Origin: Candidatus Woesearchaeota archaeon
GTDB lineage: Archaea; Nanobdellota; Nanobdellia; Woesearchaeales; SKGA01
DNA: 64,000 bases
Assembly (NCBI GenBank): GCA_016926395.1
Contig: JAFGOT010000014.1
Span: 32,058 to 96,057, forward strand
Reading direction: 5' to 3'
A program made the position numbers and the translations under genes. Numbering within the stretch: the stretch's first letter is position 1; every line of letters starts with the position of its first letter. This document shows positions 14,968 to 36,878 of the stretch, piece after piece. The notes beneath the pieces are model-generated. The model saw nothing but the letters and a program-made list of their open reading frames with translations, did not search any database and was not told where the DNA came from.

Positions 14968-15072
14968 AAAAAAAGAACTATTTTTTTTATTTATAAATGC
15001 ATCTTTTCACGCAAAAGCTGCACAAAATTGGTGGAGTAAATTTGGTAGCACAAAAAAGTTAGAATGAATATT

Positions 15073-16203: not shown

Positions 16204-16299
16204 TTGTTGTTAATTTTTTTTAGGTGAGTTTATCTTTTTTATTTGAGGTCAAAGTGTGCAAAAATAAATCATTTTTGAACATTTTAACAGGAGTTAAAA

Positions 16300-20794: not shown

Positions 20795-20869
20795 TAAAGA
20801 GAGAAGAATAAATTAGGGTTTTTAAGGGTGTTGATTGAGTTAAAAAGAGGCTTTATTTTATTATATGTT

Positions 20870-21023
20870 GGAGAGAAGATTCATTTTACTACAAATATCA
20901 AAAACTTGTTTTTGTTAGATTTGTTAAAATGTCCCAATAATCTTTGATTATTGAGGATGAACTGTTGAGGTTCACTCTATACGTTATTACGTTTCAAAGA
21001 AATGGGATAGCGGAGAGAGGATT
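20870..21023 (-). mobile_element. tRNA-iMet-linked 142-bp palindromic mini-element bounded by a direct repeat of the tRNA 3' half
   Basis: AATCCTCTCTCC (21023-21012) repeated as AATCTTCTCTCC (20881-20870). Shares a 37-nt module and the TGTAGTAAAATG end with the element at tRNA-Ser. Confidence 0.7.
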
Positions 21024-21082
21024 TGAACCTCCGACCTCGGGGTTATGAGCCCCGCGAGCACTCCTGACTGCTCCACCCCGCT
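21008..21082 (-). tRNA. Initiator tRNA-Met (CAT)
   Basis: Full cloverleaf, A1-U72, GGG/CCC anticodon stem, TTCAAAT T-loop; TTTAAATA box upstream; no encoded CCA. Confidence 0.97.
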
Positions 21083-21236
21083 ATAAAAAGGATAAATCTA
21101 GGAAGGAGAGGGCTATTTAAAAAGCTTTGCTTGAAAAGGGCTTTATTTGTCGCTTTTTTAACTTTTTTAGAATTAGATATTACTAAGAAAAAAGAAAAGA
21201 AAGGAAAAAGAGTTTGCGCGAAGTTTTGAGTTGTTC

Positions 21237-34149: not shown

Positions 34150-35397
34150 ATGGGATTATTAAAAAACGCAGTGGAAAAATACAAAACGGCAAAAATTAAG
34201 TTAGATTTAGCGAGAGCTAAGAAAAAAGAATTGGAAGAAGAAAGAAGTCATCTTATCTACAACGCAAAAAAATCAATGGAGAAAAATTCTTCTAATGAAG
34301 CAAACTCGGAGAAAAAAACCGAAAAGAAAAAAACAACCACTCCGATTAAGAGCAGAGCAATAATTAGTAAATTTGATAAGAAAAAAACAGTTCAAAAAAG
34401 AAGATTCTCCAGATTTCTAGAAGATTTTCTTGAAAAAGCAGGGATAGAAAAAAAGCCAAAAGAAATAAGTAAATCAGTAATTTTTGTTTCAATAATCTTA
34501 ACATTCATTTCCATAATTGCATTTATTATTTATGGATTAACTAATTTTTTGTCATCTAATGCTTATTTTGTCTTTATACCTTTAATCATAATTCTTGGTT
34601 CGGTATTTTTTTATATTGCAAGTTTGATAACTTTATTTATTTACTTTGACTTTAAAATTTATCAACGAACAGGACAGATAGAAGATGTTCTGCCTGATTT
34701 TCTACAGCTTGCATCTGCGAACATAAGTGCGGGAATGCCAATTGATAGGGCATTGTGGTTTGCTGTAAGGCCTCGTTTTGGAGTGTTGGCAAAAGAGATG
34801 GAAGAGATTGCAAAAGCCACATTTACCGGAAGCGAACTTGATGAAGCATTGATTAAGTTCACACAAAAATATAAATCACGATTACTAAAAGAATCAGTCA
34901 ATCTAATAATCGCCGGATTAAAATCAGGAGGAGAATTAGGAGATTTACTGAATAAAATTAGTGAGAACATTCAACAAACAAAAATAATGAGAAAAGAAAT
35001 AAGTGCAAGCGTTATGACTTATGTTATTTTTATAGGGGTGGCTTCAGTTCTAGCAGCACCTTTGTTATTTGCTTTAAGCTCTCAATTATTGCATGTGGTA
35101 ACTGGAATATCGGGTGACTTTGATACATCTGCAATGGAAGACATGCCTTCTGGCGTGATGCCAATATCATTTAATTTTGGATCGGGAGAAAGCGTAAAAC
35201 AATCAGATTTTAAGATATTTTCATTTACTTTAATAGTAATAACTTCTTTCTTTGCGGCTGCCATAATAGGTGTAATCCAAAAAGGTAATGCAAAATCCGC
35301 ATTAACTAAGTTTCCAATGTTTCTGGTAATTTCTTTAATAATATTCTATGTTTCTAACAAATTTTTAGGAATACTGCTTGGCGGCCTCATGGGGTAG
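34150..35397 (+). CDS. Type II secretion F / TadC platform protein
   Basis: IEDVLPDFLQLASANISAGM, GGELGDLL; Lys-rich N-terminus. Confidence 0.88.
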   Translation: MGLLKNAVEKYKTAKIKLDLARAKKKELEEERSHLIYNAKKSMEKNSSNEANSEKKTEKKKTTTPIKSRAIISKFDKKKTVQKRRFSRFLEDFLEKAGIEKKPKEISKSVIFVSIILTFISIIAFIIYGLTNFLSSNAYFVFIPLIIILGSVFFYIASLITLFIYFDFKIYQRTGQIEDVLPDFLQLASANISAGMPIDRALWFAVRPRFGVLAKEMEEIAKATFTGSELDEALIKFTQKYKSRLLKESVNLIIAGLKSGGELGDLLNKISENIQQTKIMRKEISASVMTYVIFIGVASVLAAPLLFALSSQLLHVVTGISGDFDTSAMEDMPSGVMPISFNFGSGESVKQSDFKIFSFTLIVITSFFAAAIIGVIQKGNAKSALTKFPMFLVISLIIFYVSNKFLGILLGGLMG

Positions 35398-35460
35398 AAA
35401 GCTTTAAAAAGGACTTTGAAGTCTCTGATTCTTACAAGCGTAACTATTGCGTTTGTTGTT

Positions 35461-35575
35461 TTTCATTGGCTTTTTTTTGCTGTAGTCGTATACAATGAAA
35501 GTCTTAGATTTTCAAGCATGCGACCTGTCTGAAAAGATTTTTTGTTTCATTGGCTTTTTTTGCTGCGGTCGCATA
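35461..35575 (+). repeat. Degenerate direct repeat (period about 84 bp) of the tRNA-Ser leader and first 14 nt
   Basis: tttcattggc(T8)gctgtagtcgtata at 35461 vs tttcattggc(T7)gctgcggtcgcata at 35545. Confidence 0.85.
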
Positions 35576-35643
35576 GTCTGGTATTGCGCAGGATTGCTAA
35601 TCCTGTCCTTTTAGGATCGAGTGTTCAAATCCCTCCCGCAGCG
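35562..35643 (+). tRNA. tRNA-Ser (GCT)
   Basis: GCTGCGG/CCGCAGC acceptor, CAGGA-TTGCTAA-TCCTG anticodon arm, TCCT-TTT-AGGA variable arm, G73; one T-stem mismatch. Confidence 0.95.
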
Positions 35644-35782
35644 CCTTTTTTCATTCTATATTGTTTTTATCATGTAGTCGGAATTTGAACACTACAAAAA
35701 TCAGAGATTTTTGAGGCATTTTAACAACTCTGTTGCATTTCAAAGAAATGTAGAGTTGTAGTAAAATGAATCCCTCCCGCAG
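35628..35782 (+). mobile_element. tRNA-Ser-linked 141-bp palindromic mini-element bounded by a 14-bp direct repeat of the tRNA 3' half
   Basis: AATCCCTCCCGCAG at 35628 and 35769; internal hairpins; homologous to the element at tRNA-iMet. Confidence 0.75.
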
Positions 35783-35843
35783 TGCTCTTCTTTTCTCGAT
35801 TTTTCTATAAAGTTTTATAAATTAAATTTCATTTTCGTCATTT

Positions 35844-36878
35844 ATGGGGGACATAAAACTTTACAAGAATGGCTTACGCTATATTATTGATATACCAAAA
35901 GACGATGTTTCTCATGCTACTTTTTTCTCAAATCATTTTAGAATAAGAGATCATAAACGAGGCTTTCCTGTTACTTTTCAAAGAGAAGAAAGTTTAGATG
36001 ATATAGTTAGGTTTAATTTTAATACACGAGATTTTTTAGAAACTCTTTTTGACAAATACTCTAGTGATGATTTATTCCCTTACTTGCGATATGTCACCAA
36101 AACAACTGATGAAGCTAAAGTTTGCTTTGATGAACTTGAATCTTCGGAGCAGTTTTATGAATTTGGGTATGTTATTAGGGCTAATAGTGGTAATAATCGA
36201 TGGGGTTATTATCAAGTATATGTTCCTGGACGAAGTAAGGATGATTTGAAAAAAATGTTCTTTTCAAAGTATCATAGTACTTCTAAACATAAAAACAACC
36301 GAGCAAACGGTTTCTCACCTCTACTTAGACTTTCAACAATGAACTTTTTAGATTACATGGCAAACATGCCTCCAACTATGAAGATTTCAGAACAAAAATA
36401 TTTAATGAGCAAGATGGCAACAGGACGTCTTTCAACATCAGAAGGAAAAGATTTTGTTGATAAATTACTTAACTTAACTGTTGATAACGCAGATAAATTA
36501 TATTTACGAATGCTAAAACGATGGGCTGGGCCTATTATTTTATTTGATAATACTAACGATTTGGATAGAAATTATGATGTGGATTTTGATAACTATAATT
36601 TAAGTGAAGACATGTTAAAATTTTTTTATCCTGTATTTAGGGATGAAAAATATCCTATTCCTGATTTAAAATTTGAAAACGGGGAATTTACGACCATGAC
36701 TCCACAAGAGGCAATGTTTAATCCTCGTGGTAAGCCTAATGAAATGGCTAGAATACTTCTAGAAAGCAAGAAACACAATGCTCCTGAGGCGAGAAAGATG
36801 GATTTACACATTCTAAACCGTATAAAAGAGCTCCAGGCAGAGTTTGAAGATAATATGCGGGCTATGAATGAGTTTTAA
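35844..36878 (+). CDS. Hypothetical protein
   Basis: 344-codon ORF, no recognised motif. Confidence 0.65.
   Translation: MGDIKLYKNGLRYIIDIPKDDVSHATFFSNHFRIRDHKRGFPVTFQREESLDDIVRFNFNTRDFLETLFDKYSSDDLFPYLRYVTKTTDEAKVCFDELESSEQFYEFGYVIRANSGNNRWGYYQVYVPGRSKDDLKKMFFSKYHSTSKHKNNRANGFSPLLRLSTMNFLDYMANMPPTMKISEQKYLMSKMATGRLSTSEGKDFVDKLLNLTVDNADKLYLRMLKRWAGPIILFDNTNDLDRNYDVDFDNYNLSEDMLKFFYPVFRDEKYPIPDLKFENGEFTTMTPQEAMFNPRGKPNEMARILLESKKHNAPEARKMDLHILNRIKELQAEFEDNMRAMNEF

Follow-up and report, generated by a model that had tools for sequence, protein, structure and literature searches.

The locus considered here raises the question of why the 3' end of an intact tRNA-Ser(GCT) gene from a Candidatus Woesearchaeota archaeon recurs without a single change 141 nt downstream, and what the DNA between the two copies represents. 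In the window, i.e. the whole 64,000-nucleotide stretch analyzed, the initial annotation had described this interval as a fixed-length, T-loop-targeted palindromic element of tRNA genes, either a minimal integrative element mobilized in trans or a structured trailer of the pre-tRNA. The insert is one member of a family of gene-less hairpin inserts located at the ends of tRNA and protein genes. We consider it with good confidence to be a non-autonomous mobile insert and not an RNA gene or an intron. The following features were assigned at the locus (window coordinates).

35456-35577, + strand: mirror-image event on the 5' side of the tRNA-Ser gene (repeat families D1, D3 and D4, and sequence).
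35562-35645, + strand: intact tRNA-Ser(GCT) gene (ARAGORN; Rfam tRNA model, 49.8 bits).
35628-35641, + strand: left direct repeat X1, the functional copy, comprising the 3' part of the T-loop, the 3' strand of the T-stem and the 3' strand of the acceptor stem.
35646-35651, + strand: run of six T immediately 3' of the tRNA, opening the AT-rich left part of the insert (sequence reading).
35674-35695, + strand: hairpin A, whose loop and 3' arm contain the complement of the tRNA's own T-arm.
35695-35713, + strand: family core, a 19-nt palindrome CAAWAATC-NNN-GATTWTTG with 8-bp arms and a 3-nt loop.
35717-35768, + strand: second hairpin, hp2, with a two-tier stem and a terminal hairpin (DNA fold; fold of the three-copy alignment).
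35769-35782, + strand: right direct repeat X2, the displaced and non-functional copy of the tRNA 3' end.

X1 comprises the final 14 nt of the tRNA ahead of the discriminator region. The exact repeat reported initially was recovered: X1 and X2 (35628-35641 and 35769-35782) are identical over 14 nt at a start-to-start distance of 141 nt, and past X2 a T is found where the tRNA has C72, followed by unlike sequence. The run of six T behind the tRNA is likely an archaeal terminator, as oligo-T stretches terminate archaeal transcription. Within hairpin A, the segment 35680-35693 is complementary to the 5' strand of the T-stem and the T-loop of the tRNA at 35620-35633 (inverted repeat I2, 14 nt, 93% complementary). 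The 19-nt palindrome is separated by a 3-nt linker from hp2, the right end of which abuts the right repeat exactly. Palindrome and hp2 together form the centroid DNA fold with a z-score of -4.3, and none of 200 shuffled sequences folded as well, in agreement with the internal palindrome and the long stem finishing at the repeat that had been noted before. The 127 nt between X1 and X2 contain no open reading frame, so the insert has no coding capacity and no integrase gene, and repeat analysis of the locus showed that its ends are not inverted repeats. A U52-C62 mismatch, absent in congeners, is present in the T-stem of tRNA-Ser(GCT) (window 35613-35637), and the complementary segment of the insert matches the unusual T52.

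On the 5' side of the same gene, the leader and the first 14 nt of the tRNA are duplicated with a period of approximately 84 nt around a degenerate core-like palindrome (35496-35514), which indicates that tRNA-Ser bears inserts on both sides. Of the copies in this 5' duplication, the one adjoining the promoter-like box (at about 35400-35412) is truncated. A gene on contig 11 with an insert at its 5' end shows the same order, with a core-like palindrome just past the upstream, non-functional copy.

A sister copy is present in the window on the opposite strand.

20867-21083, - strand: initiator-like tRNA-Met(CAT) gene with a 142-nt insert (the tRNA itself at 21005-21083).

Its core was located at 20935-20953, its hp2 at 20882-20931, and a degenerate right repeat extends from 20881 downwards. 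The tRNA-Met and tRNA-Ser inserts share the palindrome, the 3-nt linker, the two-tier stem and the right end, with a spacing of 142 nt at tRNA-Met. Behind tRNA-Ile(TAT), on a different contig, a third long-form copy has a spacing of 114 nt. When the three long-form copies were aligned, 5 of 23 aligned pairs had changed on both sides with pairing kept; three of these five lie in the basal stem of hp2, and compensatory pairs are present in both tiers. The initial claim that the initiator tRNA copy retains the fold through compensatory changes was thus borne out, its right repeat being degenerate.

The 28 tRNA genes predicted by ARAGORN in the 1.02-Mb assembly were scored for whether 10 nt or more of their final 25 nt recur within the next 300 nt downstream. 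Ten of them repeat their 3' end in this way, compared with 0/28 upstream and 0/28 in random DNA; tRNA-Met is an eleventh, degenerate case. These downstream repeats are not due to chance. At nine tRNAs the two copies enclose a core palindrome that fits the pattern CAAWAATC-NNN-GATTWTTG exactly or with one mismatch, namely at Ser, Met, Ile(TAT), Gly(GCC), Gly(TCC), Leu(TAG), Asn, Val(CAC) and Leu(TAA). Inserts range from 42 to 142 nt overall, with short forms of 56-62 nt and others of 97-117 nt. In the short forms at Gly(GCC), Gly(TCC) and Leu(TAG), a T-run is followed by an imperfect antisense copy of the repeat and then by the palindrome and 2-3 linker bases; each folds into a single long imperfect hairpin in which asymmetric unpaired bases adjoin the palindrome. 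The distal (right) copy has decayed at tRNA-Met, Val(CAC) and Leu(TAA), and a tandem array is present at tRNA-Leu(TAG). A fixed length, as initially proposed, is incompatible with the 114-nt copy at Ile(TAT), the short forms and the copies of 97-117 nt. The supposed targeting of the T-loop holds in part: the starts of the duplications range from the 5' strand of the T-stem through the acceptor stem. The repeats measure 11-82 nt and follow no ruler.

At least two other hairpin families in this genome follow the same design, and their exact repeats reach 82 nt. One of them, here termed family B, has five copies, some of them with exact 35-82-nt repeats at gene ends; one copy lies in the window at about 15000-15050. 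At window positions 16259-16290, just upstream of an open reading frame, a degenerate core palindrome precedes the opening bases of the hp2 motif; this is probably a decayed solo remnant of a long form. The notion that a T-loop complement is a native feature of tRNA trailers was discarded, as only 3 of the 28 tRNAs have one of at least 8 nt, and two of these three bear inserts. On contig 11, a 9-nt T-loop complement lies 14 nt past tRNA-Arg(CCT), with no palindrome or repeat nearby, and may be an insert remnant.

The core palindrome with flanking duplications also occurs at the 3' ends of protein genes (contigs 24, 2 and 22) and at one gene start (contig 11), so the specificity for tRNA genes assumed at first was wrong. 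On contig 10 of relative G052, copies of the last 12 codons and the stop codon of a protein gene flank the core palindrome; this stretch is recoded, with synonymous changes in most codons. A conserved coiled-coil gene with a fast-evolving tail is an insertion hot spot: several of 13 congeners carry independent hairpin inserts behind it (judged by eye). The duplicated ends of this gene encode each genome's own tail, e.g. FQKSLGK, FQRSMSK, FQKANK or FQKSS, each before the stop codon. The copies of a tail differ only synonymously, including switches between the codon families of six-fold degenerate amino acids and switches of the stop codon. Coiled-coil tails duplicated in two or three copies were observed. 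In these recoded cases, the antisense segment pairs with X1 as a perfect 8-14-bp hairpin across the stop codon, and X2 remains unpaired. Differences that are exclusively synonymous imply that both copies were under coding selection until recently, and such recoding does not fit a fresh target-site duplication followed by neutral decay. This speaks for an insert that brings along a substitute gene end (X1) and for a chromosome that keeps X2; the pairing of the antisense segment with X1, and not with X2, is as expected if X1 travels with the insert. The recoded protein tails represent a clean signature of recent coding selection on both copies and point to frequent insertion and excision in natural populations.

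The exact core pattern was found in 24 of 61 genomes sampled across the order, whereas the reversed control pattern was found in none of the 61. The distribution is uneven, with nine exact sites in the genome studied here versus 0-2 in each of 13 congeners. Six elements from five genomes combine a T-loop complement with the palindrome 4-13 nt behind it. The five genomes belong to three genera and two families of the order; the tRNAs concerned are Ser, Trp, Ile, Ser(TGA) and Ala, and every time the right repeat begins at AATC in the T-loop. At orthologous tRNA-Ser(GCT) loci, three congeners appear to lack an insert (judged by eye), and four others have four different ones, including a tandem pair (sequence reading). 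Insertion at this locus is therefore recurrent, and the presence/absence polymorphism looked for in the follow-up of the initial annotation does exist. Tandem arrays occur in relatives at tRNA-Ser (G005) and tRNA-Glu (G023). In relative G001, the copies at tRNA-Trp and tRNA-Ile(GAT) have a common insert body, and their repeats are specific to each tRNA. The repeats at two loci are 45-65 nt long and take in the complement. In G001, another hairpin insert of 51 nt, with an 11-nt repeat of its own, interrupts the displaced end of tRNA-Ile(GAT), showing that inserts can be nested.

The exact right end of hp2 gave only chance-level matches when 185,579 species genomes were searched, and no core lay upstream of any of them, which suggests that this hp2 subfamily is private to the genome studied. 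A metagenome scan for close relatives of the same locus returned only relatives with 49-69% identity, and an exact-protein look-up identified one contig with the same 446-nt spacer. The left part of the insert showed no significant homology to the DNA past X2 for Ser, Met and the G016 copy. The bare 19-nt palindrome was observed in GC-rich phage-like contigs (53-59% GC) as an intergenic repeat and in 113-nt tandem arrays. This repeat has unrelated GC-rich hosts and matches no Rfam family, and it is probably unrelated to the insert family.

Candidate mobilizing enzymes were searched for in the genome, which is 82.5% complete. A co-occurring integrase or HUH transposase had been suggested as a test. 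Four or five genes encoding tyrosine recombinases similar to Xer or integron integrases are indeed present; none of them reaches the NCBIfam cut-off for XerA or IntI in the 82.5%-complete genome, none is linked to any insert copy, and no hairpins, repeats or palindromes were found next to them. The HUH half of the suggestion found no counterpart, as no Y1 HUH transposase (PF01797) or RAYT gene was detected in the 82.5%-complete genome. The search covered Y1 HUH, TnpB, Cas1 and reverse transcriptase: TnpB gave a sub-threshold match only, and neither Cas1 (PF01867) nor a reverse transcriptase was found in the genome. The sole GIY-YIG match lies inside a 531-residue open frame. On the 2.6-kb contig 18, an IS91-family Y2 transposase gene adjoins a tyrosine recombinase gene. 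IS91 elements have the target GTTC, which resembles the T-loop; an IS91-type gene occurs in only 4 of 61 relatives, and the genome studied is the only congener carrying one. IS91 was rejected as the general mobilizer, since it is rare among the relatives and absent from congeners with inserts. Three of the four Y2-bearing relatives have at least three core palindromes, a post hoc count from non-independent genomes.

What the insert is not can be narrowed down from these data. The initial annotation had also considered a functional RNA, namely a trailer of the pre-tRNA or an intron in the T-loop, with the acceptor and T arms built from the distal 3' half and the intervening 141 nt looped out or spliced; this is now highly improbable. 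The minimum free energy RNA fold does pair the 5' strand of the acceptor stem with the distal copy, and the T-arm with its internal complement, and hp2 shows covariation. However, the T6 run follows directly behind the tRNA, and tRNA-Ser is complete and scores normally without splicing. At the 5' junction, where splicing would have to occur, the helix is continuous over 11 bp and forms no bulge-helix-bulge. Distal copies have decayed at Met, Val(CAC) and Leu(TAA), and the same inserts stand behind protein genes. In addition, no Rfam family matched: a scan of 35300-35900 with Rfam 15 at E-values up to 1 returned only the tRNA. The insert could alternatively be the deletion remnant of a larger integrase-bearing element or virus that once resided in the T-loop. 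The T-loop is a classic crossover site of integrases, and the attL/attR-like repeat starts in it. Such a scar is nonetheless improbable, as about ten tRNAs bear 42-142-nt inserts of one palindrome and one architecture that contain no gene fragments. Furthermore, the structure is maintained by compensatory changes, complete small units form tandem arrays, and the long-form signature was absent from all viral contigs searched. A local replication error, in which hairpin template switching copies gene ends and the palindromes are merely favored terminator-like sequences, would account for the sense and antisense copies of the neighboring target in each insert, for the perfect hairpins across stop codons, and for the long and exact repeats at some loci. 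It would not account for the same 19-nt core, in long forms together with linker and hp2, at unrelated loci across families of the order, nor for the absence of the reversed control pattern, and is regarded as quite improbable.

Transposition similar to that of MITEs comes closer to the data, though it still appears unlikely. A transposase would nick the strands 11-80 nt apart at gene ends and insert only the body (terminator, complement, palindrome and hp2), and fill-in would then generate the direct repeat. The G001 inserts at tRNA-Trp and tRNA-Ile(GAT), which share the whole body between flanking repeats matching each tRNA, are as expected from such a process. The exactness of young repeats at tRNAs and the uneven copy number among congeners (9 here, 0-2 elsewhere) fit as well. 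On the other hand, repeats of 11-82 nt imply no ruler, and the element has no terminal inverted repeats. Synonymous recoding between the copies at protein genes is close to saturation, a state that a fresh duplication cannot produce. Moreover, the search for Y1 HUH, TnpB, Cas1 and reverse transcriptase genes found none, and the single IS91-type gene sits on a 2.6-kb contig and belongs to a family that is rare in relatives (4/61).

Many copies, polymorphism among congeners and the lack of coding capacity support the reading as a minimal integrative element mobilized in trans. On balance, the best overall explanation seems to be a protein-less miniature insertion that works in the manner of an integron cassette or a CTX-type element. 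According to this explanation, a 141-nt insert would have entered the T-loop of the tRNA-Ser(GCT) gene. In its linear form it comprises X1, which keeps the tRNA intact, the oligo-T terminator, the T-arm complement, the 19-nt palindrome and the second hairpin, and the original gene end X2 would have been displaced rightward, where it is no longer used and may decay. A double-stranded circle of only 42-142 bp would be too stiff to form, so the intermediate should be single-stranded, as with integron cassettes and CTX phage; the free form would thus be a small single-stranded circle. The folded hairpin, built from complement, palindrome, linker and X1, would imitate the target duplex, and a tyrosine recombinase acting in trans, possibly one of the Xer/integron-integrase-like enzymes, would exchange strands at the left edge of X, where few identical bases would be needed. 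Crossover would yield the order gene body/X1, terminator, antisense segment, palindrome, linker/X2, and its repetition would produce arrays.

The cooperation of a hairpin with a tyrosine recombinase is proposed tentatively. The complement in long forms corresponds to the target before interruption (gene body plus X) and not to the predicted circle junction, and so it looks better suited to a guide role than to that of an attC-like R box. The G001 copies at tRNA-Trp and tRNA-Ile(GAT), with their shared body and target-specific repeats, look like duplication at insertion. Owing to these two points, to the 45-65-nt repeats and to the absence of a linked recombinase in the genome, confidence in this mechanism is limited. 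The exact repeats of up to 82 nt in family B and the missing R' consensus of integrons also count against it. A more far-reaching version, which is doubtful, would be that of DNA cassettes programmed by base pairing, in which a target-mimicking arm directs a generic host tyrosine recombinase to arbitrary gene ends. Since such a cassette would supply both a terminator and a recoded substitute for the gene end, the host gene would survive; an altered arm would retarget the element. Retargeting of the arm would explain why one palindrome family is found at many tRNAs and protein genes.

A literature search found no published description of such inserts, and the gene-less hairpin insert family seems to be undescribed. 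The present analysis adds the comparison of tRNA-Ser loci between congeners, the conserved signature with a T-loop complement, the recoded tails followed through several congeners, which favor a carried replacement end, and the cassette-style model. If the model is correct, ultra-small archaea would host a large class of gene-less elements that enter the ends of essential genes and keep these genes alive by supplying a spare end. They would represent a natural recombination system in which target choice might be set by a short complementary DNA arm. Genome annotation would suffer from them as well, through false att sites, mis-called tRNA ends and gene tails that appear duplicated.

Among known systems, MITEs, REP/REPIN sequences and IS200/IS605-derived elements are, like the inserts, short, non-coding, hairpin-rich, multi-copy and transposase-less, and in IS608 an element-internal sequence base-pairs with the target. 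Unlike these types, the inserts have long, variable gene-end repeats (11-82 nt), and their ends are not terminal inverted repeats; no Y1 HUH gene as in IS200/IS605 or REP/RAYT systems was found in the 82.5%-complete genome. Integration of the casposon or CRISPR type is not indicated, since PF01867 was not found in the genome, and an archaeal tRNA intron is incompatible with the 11-bp continuous helix at the 5' junction and the completeness of the unspliced tRNA. Archaeal elements that integrate into tRNA genes by means of tyrosine integrases (SSV-, pNOB8- and pTN3-type) share with the insert a direct repeat of the tRNA 3' part that starts in the T-loop and an intact tRNA at one end, which is completed by the element-borne copy, with the displaced copy at the far end. 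These elements encode an integrase, whereas the 141-nt insert has neither an integrase nor any other gene. Unlike them, one insert family serves many tRNAs as well as protein genes and has an internal complement of the target.

The attC sites of integrons measure about 57-141 nt, a size similar to that of the inserts (42-142 nt). The comparison with integrons takes in ORF-less cassettes and insertion at secondary sites. In their fold, the short forms resemble attC sites, as an imperfect palindrome has inner conserved and outer box pairs, a variable loop and some bases left unpaired; additional hairpins are present in the long form. Like the inserts, integron cassettes are linear forms that start 3' of the crossover, are each flanked by a short repeat and form tandem arrays, and they depend on a tyrosine recombinase in trans, as is proposed for the inserts. 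Arrays of attC sites, mostly without an integrase, have been published for Nanoarchaeota/DPANN (PMC9668308). Integrons gather at the attI platform, whereas the inserts are scattered at the ends of housekeeping genes; no array next to intI/attI was found, and no IntI was identified in the genome. The outer box is target-specific here in contrast to the GTTRRRY consensus of integrons: the R'' RYYYAAC and R' GTTRRRY sequences are absent at the junctions (by eye), which differ between targets. In contrast to integron cassettes, the cargo of the inserts is only a replacement gene end and a terminator. Mobile elements of the CTX-phi type (IMEX) target dif, which the inserts do not, and the inserts are 50-100 times smaller and gene-less. 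In their working, however, CTX-phi-type IMEX resemble the model proposed for the inserts, as a folded single-stranded site imitates the target, host Xer recombinases are used, and tandem arrays are formed.
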